64,000 nucleotides of DNA from Leptonemataceae bacterium (GTDB lineage Bacteria; Spirochaetota; Leptospiria; Leptospirales; Leptonemataceae). The first letter of the stretch is position 1; every line of letters starts with the position of its first letter. Location of the stretch: positions 1,408,001 to 1,472,000 of the forward strand of contig OZ245742.1 in the NCBI GenBank assembly GCA_965227295.1, given 5' to 3'. The notes below the pieces were generated by a model, which ran no database searches, had not been told where the DNA came from, and saw only the letters and a program-made list of their open reading frames with translations. The translations under genes and the position numbers were made by a program. Shown in pieces: positions 39,868 through 62,588 of this stretch.

Positions 39868-40902
39868 ATGCACTGGTTGTTACAGAACATACTGTTGATC
39901 GTCGGTGCCGTGCTGTTCGCGGCCTGGTATCGATACATGCGCAATCGCGGCGGCCTGGCCCATGCCCGGGAGCGACTCCGCTGCGTTCCCGGGGCGCGGC
40001 TCGCAGGCATTGTGCTCGCGATCTACTTCACGATCGGCTACGTGGATTTGCTGCGCATCCCGGCCGCGGGCGAACGGCTCTTCGCCGTAAGTCCCATTGA
40101 TTTAATCTTTAGCGCCGTCCCGCAGGAACGAACTTACAGTGCTCCTTTTGCGAGCAGCGTTATTACCGCCGTGGACGAAGACCCGCAGGCGCCGCAAAAC
40201 CGCGTGCGTGGGTGGCACGTCCTTGGCACCGACGTGAACGGATACGATGTCCTGTATAACGTCTGCAAGGGCTGCGGCGTGGCGCTGCTGCTCGTCCTCG
40301 GTACCATGCTCGTAAGTTTCCCGCTCGGCTTGTTGCTCGGACTCGCGGCCGGGTACTTCGGTGGTTTCGTGGACGACGTCGTGCAGTGGTTGTATACGAC
40401 CATGGCGAGCATCCCGTGGCTCTTGTTTGTTCTGGCCTTCCTGGCCGTCTTCGGTCGCTCGCTCTTGTGGATCTGCGTGGCCTTCGGGCTCACGTCCTGG
40501 ACCGAACTCGCGCGCTTGATTCGCGGCGAAACTCTGAAACTGCGCGAACTGAATTACGTGCGTTCCGCGCGATCCGCCGGTGTTTCTCCGGCACGCACGA
40601 TCCTGCGGCACATCCTGCCGAATCTCTCGCACGTTTACATCGTAACGTTTACGATCACCGCGTCGTCGATCGTGCTGGCCGAAAGCGTGCTGACGTTCAT
40701 CGGCATCGGCGTGGAGCCGGGGCAAAGTTCCTGGGGGCGCATGTTAGTGGAGGCGCAGACGGAACTCGTACGTTCGCCGCCGATTTGGTGGGTGTTTGCG
40801 GGAGCGTCGTTTTTGGGGATTTTTCCCCTGGTGCTCGCGTTGAATGTGTTCGGGGATGCGCTAAGGGACGCGCTGGATCCGCGGTTGGATCGGCGAAAGT
40901 GA
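39868..40902 (+). CDS. Peptide ABC transporter permease (OppC-like)
   Basis: LGTDVNG.D, ARLIRGE, HILPN, AESVLTFIGIG, SWG.M, GDALRDALDPR. Confidence 0.92.
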   Translation: MHWLLQNILLIVGAVLFAAWYRYMRNRGGLAHARERLRCVPGARLAGIVLAIYFTIGYVDLLRIPAAGERLFAVSPIDLIFSAVPQERTYSAPFASSVITAVDEDPQAPQNRVRGWHVLGTDVNGYDVLYNVCKGCGVALLLVLGTMLVSFPLGLLLGLAAGYFGGFVDDVVQWLYTTMASIPWLLFVLAFLAVFGRSLLWICVAFGLTSWTELARLIRGETLKLRELNYVRSARSAGVSPARTILRHILPNLSHVYIVTFTITASSIVLAESVLTFIGIGVEPGQSSWGRMLVEAQTELVRSPPIWWVFAGASFLGIFPLVLALNVFGDALRDALDPRLDRRK

Positions 40903-40922
40903 GGGTCAGGGGGCGCCTTCCT

Positions 40923-41876
40923 TTAAGTCTCGGCGGATTTGGTTTTCGGATTGATTTCAGCGTTCCTGGTGCCGCCTTCGTCTCTTGCGGGCCCGGGATT
41001 CTCGGTGTAGAGACTGGCTTCTCGAACTCGAATATTGTGCAGTAGTTCTGTGTGTCGTGTTGGAATTTTCGAAAGAAGGGGATCCGATACATCGTTGTCG
41101 CCAAGAATGTACGGTTCACAGATCATAAGGGGATCCTTTACTGCTGCAACATATTCTTGTAGGTACTCTCGAAGGTTGCTTGCATTTACAGGTTTTCTTT
41201 CCATTACGCTTCGATAGAGTCTATTCTCCTCGGAAGCCATAGAAATCCAGATGATCGGATAGGGCTTTCCGCGCATTACTCCCTTCAGGGGTTCGGTCCC
41301 ATCAAGAAAATAGTCAAAATCCGGGTCCAATATGACGCGCGTCAGAATTAGTGCAAGTTCCACGGATATAATAAACTTACCGTCACTCGCATATTTGCAC
41401 AGGCGAAATCCTGCGTCAATGGAAGGTCCGATATAGTCGACAAGTTCTCGAATCGTATGTGTAGTCGGCTCAGTCTCAATCCTGGCGTTCACAACGGGAA
41501 AACCTGCGGTCCAGGCCGTCGCCTTTAAGGATAGTGGAAGATCTTGTCTGCGTATAATTTCTATGTAATTGGTGATACTGCTGCGGAATGCGCGAATGAT
41601 ATGTTTTGCGTGTTTCCCGTCGCTGAGCTTGACTGTATAAACTAATTCGTCTCCGAGAAGTTTCCAGAGTTCCGGAATTTGATCTGCATTCGGGTTCCAA
41701 TCGGGTATGTTGTATATTTCGGATCGCAGTTCTCTATCAAAGTCTCCGTATAAATCCTTGAAAAACTTAAGCCACGGATGTTCGTCTTTGCGTTCTTCAT
41801 GTGGATTGTTTTTGTATGCCGTGGCACCGACCACGTCGATACTGACGAAGAGTATTAGTTCTGCGTTGACAGGCAT
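40923..41876 (-). CDS. Divergent class III nucleotide-cyclase-like protein
   Basis: SIDVVGAT (first metal Asp), WKLLGDEL (second Asp), DYIGPSIDAGFRL (aligns with D.WGD.VN.AAR), IISVE, LKG; lower GC than flanks. Confidence 0.7.
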   Translation of the reverse strand: MPVNAELILFVSIDVVGATAYKNNPHEERKDEHPWLKFFKDLYGDFDRELRSEIYNIPDWNPNADQIPELWKLLGDELVYTVKLSDGKHAKHIIRAFRSSITNYIEIIRRQDLPLSLKATAWTAGFPVVNARIETEPTTHTIRELVDYIGPSIDAGFRLCKYASDGKFIISVELALILTRVILDPDFDYFLDGTEPLKGVMRGKPYPIIWISMASEENRLYRSVMERKPVNASNLREYLQEYVAAVKDPLMICEPYILGDNDVSDPLLSKIPTRHTELLHNIRVREASLYTENPGPARDEGGTRNAEINPKTKSAET

Positions 41877-41896
41877 TACGCATTTCTTAGGATTTC

Positions 41897-42430
41897 TTAT
41901 TTGATTCCCAGAGTATCTGCTCGAACAGACACTGCGGCTGGCGAAACATAAAACTTAACTGCAGTTTGGCGCGGGCCGTATTTCTGGTAGTAGTCCGAAA
42001 AAGGCTGCGCGGGCATGAGGAAGGCGGCAGCAAACCAATTGGCCTCCCATTCCTCGCGAGTACTTCCAAATCGTTCCGCGCGTATTTTCATTTCACCCTG
42101 CATTGAGTGCAGGAAGTAATGACCCAACTCGTGTGCGATGGAGAATCGGTTTCTTGTCGGTCCGGTAAAATTTGATACGTATATGTCGAAATTGCATTGC
42201 TCGTGAACAACTATCGAAGCATGCGCTGTTTGTTCCCATAGAACGTAGTCTACAAAGTGGACCGTGCCACCGAATGCGTTGGCGACGGGAATAATGTCGT
42301 CGCCGGGAGCATAGCCGGCGGCTCTCGCGACTTCCTCGGCAGTGTGCTCGACGCTAGTGCGAGAGAAATTACCAGGCATCGCTTGTGGATATTCCTGACC
42401 TGGGAGGTGATTCTTTTCTGCCGCATTCAT
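41897..42430 (-). CDS. ImmA/IrrE-family (DUF955, M78) zinc metallopeptidase
   Basis: RNRFSIAHELGH.FLH and EWEANWFAAAFLMP, C-terminal F.VS..A..VR; no N-terminal Xre HTH; start uncertain (42430 or 42466). Confidence 0.92.
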   Translation of the reverse strand: MNAAEKNHLPGQEYPQAMPGNFSRTSVEHTAEEVARAAGYAPGDDIIPVANAFGGTVHFVDYVLWEQTAHASIVVHEQCNFDIYVSNFTGPTRNRFSIAHELGHYFLHSMQGEMKIRAERFGSTREEWEANWFAAAFLMPAQPFSDYYQKYGPRQTAVKFYVSPAAVSVRADTLGIK

Positions 42431-42624
42431 GGAGGTTGCCTGAATATACGTGGATAGCTTGCACACAGATGTGGCACCCGATCCCTGGTTTGCAACCGTA
42501 AAAACGCCAGGATTCTCAAGGTGCGGTGAATCATCAGGGAAAGTGTCCCTTTATGTGTATGTAGACCCTCAGAGCAGAAGCATAGTGTACATAATTCTTG
42601 ATGCAGGGCGCCAGCCGGTCCCAC

Positions 42625-48429
<5,805 letters not shown>

Positions 48430-48431
48430 GC

Positions 48432-49820
48432 TCAACCTCTCCCGGAGATGCCGGCGTAGATGTCCCGGCGGCCGGCGGGCAGGCCGGAGGGGCCCTTGGG
48501 ACCGATCTTCGTCACCAGCGTTTGAAAGATAACCATGGAGCCCTCGTGAAAACCCAGGGACACTCCGGCAAGATACAACAACCACAGCCGGTACTTTTCA
48601 GCGCCCACCAGGCGAATCGCCTCGTCTTTGCGTTCCTGTAAGTTGCGCGCCCAGTGCGCGCAGGTGAGCGCGTAGTGTTCGCGGATGGCCTCGACGTCGT
48701 GGACCTCGAAGCCGCGCAGTTCGAACTGCTCCACCTGATGGCCGATATCGTCGAGTTCGGAGCCGGGAAAAATGTACTTGAGAAGCAGGCGTTTTTCTTT
48801 CGTGATGTGTCGACGTCGATGGGCGGGTTTCGCGCGGCGGGCGATGCAATGATGCAACATTACGCCGCCGGGTTTCAGCATGTCGTACTGTTTTTGATAG
48901 TAACGTTCCCAGTTCGCGCTGCCCATGTGTTCGAACATGCCGATGCTCGCGATCTTGTCGTACGGGCCGTCGGCGGGAACGTGATGAAAGAAATCGTTGC
49001 ATTCCACGGTAACGCGATCTTCCAGGCCCAGCTCCCGAACCTTGCGCACGGCCCATTCGTGCTGCGCCGGCGACAGCGTCACCGCGTGGACGTGCACGCC
49101 GTAGTGTTGCGCCATGTGACACGTGAGTCCGCCCCAGCCGCAGCCCGTGTCCAGCACGCGCTCGCCGGGTTGCAGGCGCAACTTACGCGCGACCAGGTCC
49201 ATCTTATCGAACTGCGCCTGCGCCAGGGAATTCTCCCAATCGTGAAAGTAGGCGCAGGTGTACTGCATCTCTTTGTCGAGCCACAACGCGTAGAATTCGT
49301 TGGAAAGATCGTAGTGGAACTGAATGAACTCGCCGTGTTTCCGTTTCGCGCCGCTCCGGCCGATCTCGTCGTCGGCGTAAGCGTTCGCGTTGACATACTT
49401 GCCGGGCCACACGAACAGAAACGGCAGCAGCCGGCGCAGCACGAACCACTTGTTCACGGACTTGAGGCCGCGCTTGAACTCCGGCGTGCGCATGGACTTC
49501 AGAAAATCGATGATGTCGTCGTCGGAGAAGTCGATCTGCCCGGCGGCGTAGCGCATGAGCGTGTTTTCCAGGTTCCACGGTCGTCGCAGAATCGAACCGA
49601 CGGCGCCGGGATCGTTTACGGACAGGTGATATTGTACGGCTTTGCCGCTATGATTCAGCGGGTAGATTTTATTGTCCCAGAGTTTGAGGCCGATGGGTGC
49701 GTCCAGGCGTTCGGCCAGGTGATCCACTACGGCCCGCAGGGCATCGAGCAGTCGATCACTGCCTTTGCCGGCTGTCGCGGGCGGGAAGGCGGGCTGCGGA
49801 GCGACGGTATTGTTAGACAT
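48432..49820 (-). CDS. cfa: Cyclopropane-fatty-acyl-phospholipid synthase family methyltransferase
   Basis: HYDLSNEFY, M.YTCAYF, LD.GCGWGG, SIGMFEH, KYIFPG, HYA.T...W. Confidence 0.9.
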   Translation of the reverse strand: MSNNTVAPQPAFPPATAGKGSDRLLDALRAVVDHLAERLDAPIGLKLWDNKIYPLNHSGKAVQYHLSVNDPGAVGSILRRPWNLENTLMRYAAGQIDFSDDDIIDFLKSMRTPEFKRGLKSVNKWFVLRRLLPFLFVWPGKYVNANAYADDEIGRSGAKRKHGEFIQFHYDLSNEFYALWLDKEMQYTCAYFHDWENSLAQAQFDKMDLVARKLRLQPGERVLDTGCGWGGLTCHMAQHYGVHVHAVTLSPAQHEWAVRKVRELGLEDRVTVECNDFFHHVPADGPYDKIASIGMFEHMGSANWERYYQKQYDMLKPGGVMLHHCIARRAKPAHRRRHITKEKRLLLKYIFPGSELDDIGHQVEQFELRGFEVHDVEAIREHYALTCAHWARNLQERKDEAIRLVGAEKYRLWLLYLAGVSLGFHEGSMVIFQTLVTKIGPKGPSGLPAGRRDIYAGISGRG

Positions 49821-49901
49821 AATCCTGATACGACCTGAATAAAAATGACACTCAGGGCAGGACAGACCGAAACAAGCGCGAGAACGACGGTCAATGATTT
49901 T

Positions 49902-50612
49902 TTAGTCGAACGGTTGGCGAGTCCGATGCGGCGCTTTTGCCTGTGAAGCGGTGCGTTTTTCCGCGAGCAGGAGGTGCGGTTCCATGATTCTCTGGACGCG
50001 TTCGCGCTGCGTTTCGATCTCTTCTTCCGTCTCCGGAGTGCCGATGTCGATGGGATCTTCGTAGCGGAGGCTGACCTTTGCAAACGGCTTCGGGATCATG
50101 AAGCGATCCCAGGAATTGAAGAACCAGGCGCGGTCCGCCTCCGTGTAAAACGGAACGACGACACCCTTCGTCGCGCGGGTCAGATGAATCAGTCCCGGCT
50201 TGGCGATGCCGATGGGCCCCCTGGGACCGTCGACGATGTGCGCGGCCAGCTTCGCGCGGCGAATCTTCTTAATGACCTCGAACAAAGCCGCGGCGCCGCG
50301 GCGGGACGATGATCCGCGCACGGGCTGCCAGCCGGTACGGCGCGCCACGTCCGCGATGATCGAACCGTCCTGAGACGGGCTGATCATGATGCATGGTTTG
50401 CGTTCTTTGAAATTCTGAAAGTGGCGGATGGCCGCAAAGAACTGCTGGTGCCAGCAGGCGAGGATCACCACGCCGCCGGAGTCGAGGACCTTCAGGACCG
50501 CTTCTTCGTTCTGAACATCCATGCGGAAGGTCCACGAGTACATCCGAATCAACCGATAGACCAGCGGTTGCAGGATCTTCAGAACGATGAAGTATTTGAT
50601 CTTGCGGCCCAT
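49902..50612 (-). CDS. DUF374 / lysophospholipid acyltransferase-family protein
   Basis: ACWH, IS.S.DG, VRGSSSR.G, VDGPRGP, SWDRF.IPKPF. Confidence 0.88.
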   Translation of the reverse strand: MGRKIKYFIVLKILQPLVYRLIRMYSWTFRMDVQNEEAVLKVLDSGGVVILACWHQQFFAAIRHFQNFKERKPCIMISPSQDGSIIADVARRTGWQPVRGSSSRRGAAALFEVIKKIRRAKLAAHIVDGPRGPIGIAKPGLIHLTRATKGVVVPFYTEADRAWFFNSWDRFMIPKPFAKVSLRYEDPIDIGTPETEEEIETQRERVQRIMEPHLLLAEKRTASQAKAPHRTRQPFD

Positions 50613-50627
50613 AAGAAAAGGGCCGGC

Positions 50628-51662
50628 TTAGTTTTTGATTTCGAAGACGGCCTTGTTCTTCTCGATCCACTCCAGCAACATCTCGACGCCCTTCCGCGGG
50701 GAGATGGCCGGCTTGAAACCGAAGTTCTTCGTCGCCTTGCTGATGTCGCAGATGAAGTAGCGCATGTCGCCCGGACGCTCTTCGTGGTACTCGATCTCCG
50801 GTTTGCGGCCTAAGATGTCGCCGATCATGTGAATGCATTCCACGAGGGAGATTTTGTTTTCCGGTCCGCCGCCGATGTTGTAGACGCCCGGCTCGGGTTT
50901 CTTGAACCAATCGATGAACGCCTGGGCGCCGTCGGAACCGTAGATGATGTCCCGCGTTTGTTTGCCGGTACCGAAGATGCGGCAGGGCCAGCCGAAGGCC
51001 GACCGAATGGCGAAGTTCGCCACCCAGCCGTGATCTTCGCCGCCGAACTGCCGCGGGCCGTAGATGCCGGTGAAACGAAACGAAGCCGCTTTGGTGTTCA
51101 GCATGTCCGTGAACGTGCGGGCATAGTGTTCCGCCGCCATCTTCGAGGCGTGCAGCGGAGAGATTTGCCCGACCATGGTATCTTCGTCTTCCGGAATCGC
51201 CACGGGATTGCGTTCGTAGGCGGTCTCGCCCTCGGTCAGTGTATTGTTGATGTGGTTGCCGTAAACGTGAATGGAAGACGTGTTTACGACGGGGATCTTG
51301 TGCTGGCGCGCCGCATCCAGGACGTTGAAGGTACCGAGAACGTTCGTGTTGAAGTCCAGGCGGGGATCTTCCCAGGAGATCGTCATGGCCGGCTGAGCCG
51401 CCGTGTGCACGATGTAATCGCAACCGGAGCTGTGATCCTTGAGGGCCTGCTCGTCGCAGACGTCGGCCTTGACCATCTCGCAGCCCATGCCCTTGAGTTC
51501 TTCCCAGTTAAAGTCCCGGGTCTTGTCGGTGCCGTAGCCGGTCCGGCCCAGTTCGTACTTCGTCATGTTGTCGTACGCGACGACCTCCCAGCCCTCTTTG
51601 CGAAAGTTTTCGCATACGTGAGAGCCGAGAAATCCGCATCCGCCGGTTACCAGTACTTTCAT
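50628..51662 (-). CDS. NAD-dependent nucleotide-sugar epimerase/dehydratase (CDP-paratose 2-epimerase-like)
   Basis: TGGCGFLGS, HTAAQ, IYGPRQFG.EDHGWVA, GTGKQTRD, RPGD; the catalytic YxxxK appears as LHASK. Confidence 0.88.
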   Translation of the reverse strand: MKVLVTGGCGFLGSHVCENFRKEGWEVVAYDNMTKYELGRTGYGTDKTRDFNWEELKGMGCEMVKADVCDEQALKDHSSGCDYIVHTAAQPAMTISWEDPRLDFNTNVLGTFNVLDAARQHKIPVVNTSSIHVYGNHINNTLTEGETAYERNPVAIPEDEDTMVGQISPLHASKMAAEHYARTFTDMLNTKAASFRFTGIYGPRQFGGEDHGWVANFAIRSAFGWPCRIFGTGKQTRDIIYGSDGAQAFIDWFKKPEPGVYNIGGGPENKISLVECIHMIGDILGRKPEIEYHEERPGDMRYFICDISKATKNFGFKPAISPRKGVEMLLEWIEKNKAVFEIKN

Positions 51663-60731: not shown

Positions 60732-61348
60732 AACCGGACCAGGCGCCGCCGTACTTCCGCGGGACGCAGTACATCGGCTCGTTTCCGTCGATTGACGACT
60801 GCCCGAATACCGGCGTGATCCCGCAGATCGCATTTACGGGCCGCTCGAACTCGGGCAAGTCCAGTTTGATTTCGGCGTTATGCGATCATCGTAATCTTGC
60901 TAAGTCTTCTTCGGCGCCGGGTAAGACTCGCACGTTGAACTACTTTCTCGTTCCGGATTCCAATGCCCCGCCGCACGGTTTGTATCTTGTTGATTTGCCC
61001 GGTTACGGTTTCGCTAAGATTCCGAAGAATGAGCGCTCGCGTTTGCGCGCCATGGTGGATCGTTTCCTGGCCGAAGCGCAGAACATGTTGCTGCTCGTCA
61101 TTGTCCTCGACGCCCGCCGAAAACTGGAAGAGGAAGAAGAGAACATTGTGCGCTACTGCCGCGAGTTCGATCAGCCGTTCGTATTCGCGCGGACGAAGTG
61201 GGACAAGTTGAACACCAAAGAGCGCGGCAAGGCGTTAAACGATTGGAAGGCCGCAGGGTTGGCGGATGTGAGCATTGCGCTGTCGTCCGTGAAGAAGAAC
61301 GCCGGGATCGTGAAGATGCTGGACCTGGTGCGCGGGAAGTTGGGTTGA
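60728..61348 (+). CDS. engB: Ribosome biogenesis GTPase EngB/YihA/YsxC
   Basis: GRSNSGKSS, PGKTR.LN, DLPGYG, TKWDK. Confidence 0.93.
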   Translation: MKPDQAPPYFRGTQYIGSFPSIDDCPNTGVIPQIAFTGRSNSGKSSLISALCDHRNLAKSSSAPGKTRTLNYFLVPDSNAPPHGLYLVDLPGYGFAKIPKNERSRLRAMVDRFLAEAQNMLLLVIVLDARRKLEEEEENIVRYCREFDQPFVFARTKWDKLNTKERGKALNDWKAAGLADVSIALSSVKKNAGIVKMLDLVRGKLG

Positions 61349-61389
61349 TGGGGCAAAAGATACGGTGACTTCTGGCGACGTGAGGGCGT

Positions 61390-61889
61390 CTAAAAATTGT
61401 CGAGGACATCCTTTGCCGCTCTTCCCGAAATCCTTTTTATTTTCAAGGCAATGTCGGTTAGAGTTTCGAATGCTTTACTGGCCCTATCGCCCACATCATC
61501 TAATTGCATATTGGCGACGCGAACACCAAGCATAATATTTTTTGCGCGATGGTATTCGCCTCGAATGTTTGCCCGTTGGACCTGGGTCAGTCTATAACGA
61601 GGCCTTGCCATTAGTTCCTCGCAGACCTGTTTCAACATGAGCGCATAGTGCTGGACGATATCGGACAAAGCTCGATTCAGGTGATGTTCAACATCTGCGA
61701 TCTGCCAGGTAATGATTGCCGGATCGGGATTGGCAGACATCGCTTCTTTTCCAGCCTTTTGTAAGTGGAATAGACAGTCTCTGACATTTGTGTAAGCGCC
61801 GCCGCTATGATTAAGAATCGTTCTTTGAATACTTCACGAAGGTATTCGTCAACATCTGCAGCATTGCGGTATTCGCGAACTACTGACAT
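61390..61889 (-). pseudogene. Orphan helical protein, apparently one gene split by a -1 frameshift (ORFs 61677-61889 and 61390-61740)
   Basis: Overlapping ORFs join as ...YKRLEK-EAMSANPDP... if one A is added to the A4 run at 61747-61750 (minus strand). Confidence 0.5.
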
Positions 61890-61895
61890 CGATGA

Positions 61896-62147
61896 TCATG
61901 TGGTGAAATCTTTCAATTCTTGCAACTCTTCTTCGGAAATTTCCGGGCTGTCAACAAAGGCCCCAGAATGACGCCCAAGTGTGATCTTGCCTTCTCCTCG
62001 TGGAGACCTCAGACTTCTGCCTAGAGTGTGCATGATTGCCGCCTTTTTTAAGACAAAGTCTGCCGTGAGTGGCTGATCAGGCTCTCGCCCCATCGTAGCC
62101 GCGTAAAGGTTGGTAAGTTGCTGAGATACTTCGTCAAATTTCTTCAT
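61896..62147 (-). CDS. Small orphan protein
   Basis: 83 aa, ATG with AGGGT upstream, tight spacing with neighbours, lower GC. Confidence 0.6.
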   Translation of the reverse strand: MKKFDEVSQQLTNLYAATMGREPDQPLTADFVLKKAAIMHTLGRSLRSPRGEGKITLGRHSGAFVDSPEISEEELQELKDFTT

Positions 62148-62162
62148 GCTACACCCTGCCGA

Positions 62163-62588
62163 CTATTGCAGTTTATCCATTAACTCCTCAATTTCTCGTA
62201 ATCCGTTGAGAAGCCTGTTGTCGATTTTGCCGTCCTTTTCTGCAACCTGCGCAATGCGCAGCTTGTATTCGGAAATCTTATTGTCCAGTTCAGAGCCTTC
62301 CTGGATTTCACCTTGAATTAGAAATTCGTCCTTAATAGTCTTCAGTCTCTCCAGGAACATCTTTGAAAGTTGCTTCCGTCTCTTGATGACTTCACTCTGA
62401 GCCTCTTCCCGTAGCGAATCGGTTATCTGAAATTCATCCCGCACAAAAGATGCGAGCAAGGAGAAAATCCGAACGTATAAGGTGTCGAGATCTTCCTCCG
62501 AGGACCAGTTTTCCTCAATGATCGTTATAAGTGTAATCGGCGTAACGAACTCTTTGGTGAATTCGTTTATGTTGGCCAGTTCACCCAT
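62163..62588 (-). CDS. Acidic helical orphan protein
   Basis: 141 aa, amphipathic helical pattern, lower GC. Confidence 0.7.
   Translation of the reverse strand: MGELANINEFTKEFVTPITLITIIEENWSSEEDLDTLYVRIFSLLASFVRDEFQITDSLREEAQSEVIKRRKQLSKMFLERLKTIKDEFLIQGEIQEGSELDNKISEYKLRIAQVAEKDGKIDNRLLNGLREIEELMDKLQ

Follow-up and report, generated by a model that had tools for sequence, protein, structure and literature searches.

A cyclase-fold protein paired with an M78 peptidase in a Leptonemataceae genome, in phages and on plasmids: a candidate mobile conflict module

What might a peptidase of the ImmA/IrrE type do when its only constant neighbor is a predicted nucleotide-using enzyme and not a helix-turn-helix (HTH) repressor? 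The question is raised by two genes in a 64,000-nucleotide stretch of a Leptonemataceae bacterium genome (GenBank assembly GCA_965227295.1, contig OZ245742.1, positions 1,408,001 to 1,472,000 of the forward strand), which we refer to as the window. An M78 peptidase gene lies there 5' of a gene for a 317-residue protein, called cyclase-like below, in the same orientation and with a gap of 20 bp. A first-pass annotation, read from the letters of the window, had pointed to these two co-oriented open reading frames (ORFs) 20 bp apart, and both are found where it placed them. They belong together as a dedicated pair that is real, intact, and strongly conserved, and the module is assembled from known parts, an M78 switch peptidase and a class III cyclase fold. 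The cyclase-like protein itself represents a large family: of 1.84 billion cluster representatives scanned with HMMER, 1,623 are relatives at E ≤ 1e-3 and 1,044 at E ≤ 1e-10. Where the source gives a name its relatives are annotated "hypothetical", and none of Pfam, NCBIfam, and PADLOC has a model for the family, the 317-residue protein matching nothing in them even at E ≤ 1.

Linkage and conservation of the two genes

The pairing was assessed at 92 loci, 80 of them genome loci kept from 193 relatives in one-genome-per-species contigs (search with 14 closer sequences) and 12 of them viral contigs from IMG/VR. Immediately upstream, and in the same orientation, 82 of the 92 have a peptidase homolog: 71 of the 80 genome loci, to which a copy cut by the contig end can be added at locus L057, and 11 of the 12 viral contigs, the twelfth of which begins inside the cyclase-like gene. 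Intergenic gaps are mostly −4 to +25 bp. The loci without a peptidase are five of a Phenylobacterium type, considered further below, together with L013, L067, and L022, the last of which has at most a remnant that matches at E 0.79. Linkage also holds in the reverse direction: among 31 related genomes, all nine peptidase matches of at least 112 bits adjoin a cyclase-like match, and weaker M78 matches do not. A conservation survey proposed with the first-pass annotation thus returns tight co-occurrence from both sides. The evolutionary distances of the two proteins correlate over 78 pairs (r 0.72, a value that 0 of 999 Mantel permutations reach). No third conserved gene stands beside the pair among ORFs of at least 80 residues, nor among ORFs of 35 to 160 residues at the 82 paired loci of the 92 examined, and the latter survey found no small HTH partner. 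Prediction of a complex between the two proteins, both supplied as alignments, reached a best ipSAE of 0.21 against a mark of 0.32, which is evidence neither for nor against an interaction.

The upstream protein matches Pfam Peptidase_M78 (PF06114, E 3.2e-18). The residues of its HELGH motif (H112, E113, and H116) and the downstream glutamate E139 are all invariant in 45 homologs from paired loci, and E141 is conserved in at least 90% of them. In its AlphaFold2 (AF2) model (pLDDT 89.9), the protease domain is followed by three short helices that form an HTH-like linker, and the chain then ends at residue 189. The best Foldseek matches are CapP (7t5t, E 2.3e-5) and IrrE/PprI (3dti and 8sln), all of 240 to 278 residues. 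The PADLOC capP model matches at E 1.2e-21 over model positions 4 to 145 of 242 only, and the PADLOC RmrA models match the peptidase domain at E 3e-14 and weaker. The Pfam scan found no HTH in the protein, and the AF2 model, the Foldseek comparison, and the extent of the capP alignment place no C-terminal GAF domain behind the linker; more broadly, no GAF, CARF, SAVED, or cyclic nucleotide (cNMP)-binding domain was found by the Pfam scan, in the AF2 model, or by Foldseek. Because it has no GAF domain, the peptidase is without the part that makes its relatives sensors of DNA damage. The description of a stand-alone peptidase with an intact HELGH...E site, no HTH, and no HTH partner therefore stands on both the Pfam scan and the survey of small ORFs at the paired loci, and the further suggestion of an IrrE- or CapP-like switch activated by single-stranded DNA (ssDNA) or stress becomes doubtful, since the GAF domain that PprI needs is missing here.

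For the downstream protein, the assignment comes from structure. Its AF2 model, built on a 46-sequence alignment, has a pLDDT of 88 and a pTM of 0.85, and in a Foldseek search of the Protein Data Bank (PDB) every match listed is a class III adenylyl or guanylyl cyclase (best E 2e-9, target-normalized TM 0.69 to 0.81, 184 matches at E ≤ 0.001). VIA-align superposes Pseudomonas aeruginosa CyaB with Z 16.8 and a root-mean-square deviation of 2.9 Å over 184 residues, followed by about 50 further cyclase entries at Z 15 to 16.6, all over model residues 1 to 216. The structural search suggested by the first-pass annotation accordingly yields a class III cyclase fold, and the additional C-terminal region that it had described corresponds to residues ~217 to 317, which lie beyond the core in both AF2 and VIA-align. 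This extension has helices at 216–225, 232–245, and 273–291, a conserved Pro255-[FY]-[ILF], and a disordered acidic tail, and its length varies across the family. No DNA-binding domain was found in the protein by the Pfam scan or in the AF2 model.

The window contains a canonical cyclase domain with which the protein can be compared directly. The motifs FMDFKGFT, KTIGD, DVWGDAVNVAAR, and IKNRGK of the canonical domain are matched by SIDVVGAT, KLLGD, DYIGPSIDAGFR, and LKG, with identical spacings in both (K to D, +4; D to N/D, +7; D to R, +11), so that K-x-x-G-D and D-x6-(N/D)-x3-R are spaced alike in the two. The motif-by-motif register proposed earlier is in this respect exact; it is weakly seconded by hhalign and strongly by the fold. 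Class III cyclases have a beta-alpha-beta-beta-alpha-beta palm core, in which two Asp residues, one on strand 1 and one in the GD of the beta2-beta3 hairpin, bind metal, a Lys/Asp pair specifies the base, and an Asn and an Arg stabilize the transition state. Across 46 proteins of the new family, K72, G75, D76, E77, K118, W122, N130, D147, G150, P151, D154, G156, F157, R158, and G199 are invariant and S12, D14, and K198 nearly so. The same pattern recurs in the 92 loci apart from a few single substitutions and an N-terminally truncated ORF (L068), and both metal Asp (D14 and D76) are kept in every full-length locus. These alignments bear out the earlier statement that both metal Asp and the Arg are retained and that Asn has become Asp. 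We take K72 and D147 to be the base-specifying Lys/Asp pair, as in adenylyl cyclases. With this complement of residues, the product of the second gene looks catalytically competent.

Distribution and carriage by mobile elements

The pair is horizontally mobile and is carried by phages and plasmids. Its loci span Spirochaetota, Pseudomonadota (alpha, beta, gamma, and Magnetococcales), Planctomycetota, Verrucomicrobiota, and Myxococcota, with further loci in Campylobacterota, Fibrobacterota, Acidobacteriota, Abditibacteriota, and Armatimonadota, where we presume the phylum of each locus from the title of its record. A phage protein family, phrog_18024, matches at E 1.3e-47. In Clostridioides difficile phage phiCD27, gp38 (M78) and gp37 (528 residues) sit between the holin/endolysin genes and the integrase, which is itself adjoined by a separate, second metalloprotease gene. 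Leptospira phage LE1 has its pair beside the CI repressor, as gp80 (394 residues) and the M78 protein gp81, whose annotation is that of an immunity-region regulator, and on the Leptospira interrogans plasmid p5 the pair adjoins a DUF433/PIN-type toxin-antitoxin (TA) pair and several HTH genes. Since the pair occurs in C. difficile prophages and on plasmids that pathogenic Leptospira carry, it bears on studies of phages and their hosts in both groups.

Closer to the window, a search of 30 relatives of its genome detects the cyclase-like gene in 6; both genomes of the same genus are without it. In both of these congeners the opp permease homolog ends at the equivalent of window positions 40881–40884, and the next match, corresponding to window position 50627, follows 0.7 to 0.9 kb past the opp end; window positions 40903–50626, between the opp permease gene and an epimerase-like gene at 50628, have no counterpart at the site in either. 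Because the flanks of the congeners join 0.7 to 0.9 kb apart, the whole stretch from 40.9 to 50.6 kb is strain-specific here. An insertion directly after opp had been proposed for the pair alone; the pair does follow the end of opp, but what is absent from both congeners is a 9.7-kb segment that contains it. Within that segment the low-GC pair is the most foreign-looking part. The GC content of positions 40923–42466 is 0.481 against 0.591 for the whole window, in agreement with the earlier remark that the pair is richer in AT than its flanks, and GC at third codon positions (GC3) is 0.47 and 0.53 in its two genes against 0.77 in the neighboring 1,986-residue gene. Among 625 sliding windows of 1,544 bp, only the stretch of the pair and one other, at about 60.9 to 63.4 kb, fall below 0.50.

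The genes around the pair, surveyed as one gene per side over genome and viral loci, have a defense and mobile-element flavor that is suggestive, if modest. Upstream (n = 81), four neighbors carry Peptidase_S24 and about three each belong to the individual HTH families, and the others include type I, III, and IIG restriction-modification genes, DpdF, ShosT (two), and PsyrT (one). Downstream (n = 83), four genes are of the N6-methylase/MmeI type and two are integrases.

Candidate mechanism and its alternatives

We see about an even chance that the pair is a mobile conflict module, either TA-like or of the prophage type that brings about abortive infection, in which the peptidase proteolytically controls a cyclase-fold effector that uses nucleoside triphosphates (NTPs). 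The first-pass annotation had proposed a protease-gated cyclase or a TA-like pair, possibly with a non-canonical product or with NTP depletion, and its functional idea is plausible. On this reading, the Lys72/Asp147 pair would most likely direct the enzyme to ATP or another purine NTP, from which it would either make a (cyclic) nucleotide or simply drain the NTP pool. The characterized M78 peptidases in the reports consulted each cut one protein encoded next to them and the only constant partner here is the enzyme, so the peptidase most likely cleaves and controls it; by analogy with those peptidases, the cyclase-like protein would be its specific substrate. In the available part of one account, CapP cuts CapH at F82/R83, inside CapH's C-terminal dimerization domain (preprint 10.1101/2022.04.27.489752), and in the available part of another, on IrrE and DdrO, the peptidase likewise acts on a neighbor-encoded protein that is cut in its C-terminal oligomerization region (PMC12828697). 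The most likely cut site in the present pair would be the C-terminal extension, and proteolysis would set the enzyme, as the effector, on or off.

The direction of control is where the absence of a GAF domain matters most. For PprI, the accessible text of one study has the GAF-like domain needed for the binding of ssDNA and for activation, with a GAF-truncated protein that keeps its intrinsic cleavage and loses ssDNA binding and stimulation (PMC10904395). Since the peptidase of the pair lacks any such sensor, and since PprI shortened by its GAF domain still cleaves intrinsically, the peptidase is probably constitutively active. We lean toward a constitutive "protease antitoxin" that would keep the enzyme suppressed for as long as the peptidase is supplied and active. 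RosmerTA offers a parallel, its antitoxin being a Zn-peptidase protein. An activating cut would be equally compatible with the data. A bolder version, tentative and short of probable in our estimate, would have an effector-less nucleotide-based immune or addiction module spread over at least 10 bacterial phyla, temperate phages, and plasmids, in which the cyclase-fold enzyme is itself the toxin, through NTP drain or through a nucleotide, toxic or non-canonical, that the Asn-to-Asp exchange would allow it to make, and is checked or released by a sensor-less M78 protease that cuts it. If the pair acts in defense or as a TA system, the substrates of ImmA/IrrE-type peptidases would extend from HTH repressors to an enzyme, and class III cyclase chemistry would have a second, architecturally different use in conflict after Pycsar; if the peptidase is a protease antitoxin, it would be one directed at an enzyme and not at a repressor. 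At about 1.5 kb, the pair is small enough to be tested directly in Escherichia coli.

A side branch of the family has a NUDIX domain in place of the C-terminal extension, and this points to nucleotide chemistry as the business of the module. The fused gene (L120:1919-3199, PF00293 at E 3.6e-12) has an M78 gene directly upstream (L120:1919-3798 for the two), and its contig in one relative (G018:C2) carries both a standard pair at about 88.8 to 90.2 kb and this cyclase-like–NUDIX pair with its own M78 gene at about 46.4 to 48.3 kb. Searched among about 290 sequences, the C-terminal half of phiCD27 gp37 shows a weak resemblance to the NUDIX part, at E 7.8e-5, and it has no Pfam match. No M78 domain occurs inside the cyclase-like protein among about 285 family members, and a search with residues 1 to 215 for longer fused forms of 556 to 2,000 residues found none, which is weak evidence.

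Several observations weigh against a conflict module built on a cyclase-type enzyme. Any two genes inherited together would be expected to show tight linkage and mirrored distances, neither of which demonstrates that their products interact physically. The class III domain PF00211 is not detected in the 317-residue protein, and its gene falls outside the 51 PF00211 matches of the genome. An hhalign comparison with 12 canonical cyclase domains that this genome encodes was weak (E 0.019, probability 2.4%, 59 columns); two of these 12 were free of stops on both strands and were used in the forward frame, which is probably the wrong one for L090, a minus-strand match. A profile of the family against PDB sequences gave non-significant cyclase matches only (E 0.65 to 1.7; 1ybt 0.65, 1wc0 1.6). 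The class III assignment rests on the modeled structure and the motif register, with weak sequence-profile links. The position of the transition-state Asn is occupied by the invariant Asp154, with Arg158 retained, and the predicted enzyme may carry out a chemistry other than cyclization. Most immediate neighbors are ordinary or unrelated genes, with defense genes making up only a few per cent, and in the window neither an integrase nor a defense gene adjoins the pair.

A clade of five loci of the Phenylobacterium type, which carries the cyclase-like gene without any peptidase, counts on the same side. In these loci (L051, L052, L056, L063, and L070), a single lineage, the gene encodes 261 to 281 residues and keeps its context between a gene for a circularly permuted ATP-grasp protein of about 838 residues and one of about 545 residues. 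This version is possibly an offshoot of the family that became domesticated on the chromosome. Its existence suggests that the cyclase-like enzyme is not necessarily lethal alone, at least in this shortened form. The clade has the shortest extension, 59 to 60 residues past the core, with PVRL instead of P[FY][ILF]. We considered this coincidence as proof that the extension is the cleavage target and dropped it, given that five paired Leptospira loci are also short (62 to 82 residues) and that the orphans are one lineage.

Three readings depart from the preferred one in what the proteins do for each other or for their carrier. Signaling could run from the enzyme to the protease, with the cyclase-fold protein sensing and making a nucleotide that activates the M78 peptidase, which would then cleave host or phage proteins. 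The conserved catalytic residues of both proteins would suit this, as would the lack of any other effector encoded beside the pair and the activation of the relatives PprI and CapP by nucleic-acid ligands, as far as the consulted parts of the reports on them go. We nevertheless think it unlikely: the peptidase is a protease domain with a short helical linker only and has none of the GAF, CARF, SAVED, or cNMP-binding domains, ligand activation of PprI requires, in the consulted part of its report, the GAF-like domain that is absent here, and M78 peptidases are to our knowledge single-substrate switches and not broad effectors. It is decidedly improbable, in turn, that the cyclase-like protein is a pseudo-enzyme, a non-catalytic nucleotide-binding sensor that regulates the peptidase or is regulated by it. 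The replacement of the transition-state Asn by Asp and the failure of the canonical cyclase HMM to match would fit such a role, but both metal Asp, the Arg, and the phosphate-binding Lys and Gly vary little or not at all among 46 proteins and are kept in 92 loci apart from a few single substitutions, residues of the kind that pseudo-enzymes usually lose, and the invariance of the Asp found in place of Asn suggests that it has a function.

The pair might also be an accessory of mobile elements with no part in defense, one that manipulates the nucleotide second messengers of the host or serves the lysis-lysogeny decision of the element. Its place in or beside the lysogeny module of LE1 and phiCD27 is in keeping with this idea, the host of the window is heavy in class III cyclase signaling by its count of PF00211 matches, and K72/D147 suggest ATP and hence cAMP as a plausible product. 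That the pair also stands alone in chromosomes without adjoining prophage genes, as in the window, that phiCD27 has a separate metalloprotease next to its integrase, and that the cyclase-like protein has no DNA-binding domain all count the other way, and we would be surprised if this were its role. Least of all do we credit an ordinary chromosomal housekeeping signaling pair whose low GC is incidental. It was already disfavored, and for all that the genes adjoin a large kinase-GAF-cyclase signaling gene on the same strand, they were not found in the two congeners or in 24 of 30 relatives, are scattered over many phyla, phages, and plasmids, differ from that neighbor in GC3 by the values given above, and have neighbors that vary from locus to locus.

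Comparison with known systems and layout of the locus

The nearest precedents each share one part of the pair. Pycsar, too, is a small mobile operon that uses a nucleotidyl cyclase fold of the class III type, but the 317-residue protein matches no PADLOC 2.0.0 model at E ≤ 1, the PycC models included, no cNMP-binding effector of transmembrane or TIR type is found beside the pair in the window or conserved in the 92 loci, the partner is a peptidase, and the protein has Lys and Asp where the base is specified, like adenylyl cyclases. With both the PycC profile match and a PycTM- or PycTIR-type effector missing, the first-pass annotation was right to set the pair apart from standard Pycsar. CapH/CapP, IrrE(PprI)/DdrO, and ImmA/ImmR share an M78 family peptidase beside a single dedicated partner, and the match to the capP model and the solved structures of CapP and IrrE/PprI, the nearest to this peptidase, make the likeness concrete. 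They differ in having an XRE-type HTH repressor as partner; no HTH gene adjoins the pair in the window, and none is conserved beside it among the small ORFs of the 82 paired loci. CapP and IrrE are also longer, at 240 to 278 residues against 189 here with no GAF-like domain, and relative to CapH/CapP and IrrE/DdrO the partner here is a cyclase-fold enzyme, not a transcription factor, and neither CBASS nor a DNA-repair regulon goes with it.

RosmerTA, a TA system validated against phages, is described in the accessible part of its report as a Zn-peptidase antitoxin, RmrA, with a toxin, RmrT, "of unknown function" (preprint 10.1101/2022.05.11.491447). Both it and the present pair are two-gene modules that combine an M78 Zn-peptidase protein with a partner of unknown mechanism. 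The RmrA models, however, have 357 to 400 positions, and only their central peptidase part aligns (residues 95–158 to 196–259 of 383). RmrA has an N-terminal HTH, whereas the 189-residue peptidase has none by Pfam. The 317-residue protein matches no PADLOC model, those for RmrT included, although the diversity of the RmrT models may limit this comparison. Set against canonical class III cyclases (PF00211), the protein shares the fold over the whole catalytic domain and the spacing of the metal Asp, K-x-x-G-D, D-x6-X-x3-R, and K-G; it differs in that PF00211 goes undetected, in the invariant Asp for Asn, in the family-specific E77, K118, W122, N130, and P151, in a longer helix after strand 1, in the extension of about 100 residues or the NUDIX fusion, and in its link to a peptidase. 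A generic type II-like TA or abortive-infection module fits in layout and spread: the operon is compact, has two genes, and is mobile, patchy in distribution, and present on phages and plasmids. By these comparisons the pair is not Pycsar, CapH/CapP, IrrE/DdrO, or ImmA/ImmR, nor RosmerTA as PADLOC defines it, and by analogy it would work most like a hybrid of them, an M78-controlled two-gene module with an output domain of the cyclase type. The PADLOC 2.0.0 scan suggested at the outset matches the pair to no catalogued system, and the impression that it had not been described holds in our literature searches, which found no description, although supplementary tables of defense-discovery papers might list it.

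Table 1. Positions of the paired genes, their parts, and the upstream spacer in the window
Feature	Positions	Strand	Details or basis
M78 (ImmA/IrrE-type) peptidase gene	41897–42466	minus	189 residues from GTG
Cyclase-like gene	40923–41876	minus	317 residues; no Pfam, NCBIfam, or PADLOC match
Cyclase-fold catalytic core, residues 1–216 of the 317-residue protein	41229–41876	minus	AF2, Foldseek, VIA-align, conservation
C-terminal extension, residues 217–317 and stop codon	40923–41228	minus	AF2 secondary structure, conservation
158-bp spacer from the stop of the 1,986-residue gene to the peptidase ORF; presumed promoter region	42467–42624	minus	sequence

The features of the locus are listed in Table 1. 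An in-frame ATG at 42430, which would give a peptidase of 177 residues, fits the starts of homologs better than the GTG and is probably the true start. The pair is flanked by the opp permease gene, whose convergent 3' end is at 40902, and by the co-oriented 1,986-residue gene, whose stop is at 42625. Scans for promoters, terminators, and repeats around the pair gave nothing above chance, flanking direct repeats were not seen, and no sigma-70-like site was found on the minus strand of the spacer. A look for RNA sequencing runs turned up only two runs of DNA type, both from one study. A 65-residue GTG-start ORF at 42427–42624 (minus) exactly spans the interval from the stop of the large gene to the likely ATG of the peptidase; nothing conserved corresponds to it elsewhere among the loci, and it is unlikely to be a gene.

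The 1,986-residue neighbor is a kinase/AAA/TPR/GAF/cyclase gene on the same strand as the pair. The host genome has an unusually large cyclase complement, and many of its 51 PF00211 matches lie in very long multidomain proteins, in frames of up to about 1,990 residues. Besides the pair, positions 40903–50626 hold this 1,986-residue gene, a cyclopropane-fatty-acid-synthase-like gene at 48432–49820, and a gene for 236 residues at 49902–50612; the label of the synthase-like gene and that of the epimerase-like gene beyond the segment come from reading the translations and are not profile matches. The second low-GC stretch of the window, in which the 1,544-bp windows below 0.50 begin at 60901–61901, holds, at 61390–62588 on the minus strand, two short ORFs whose products, of 116 and 141 residues, look helical.

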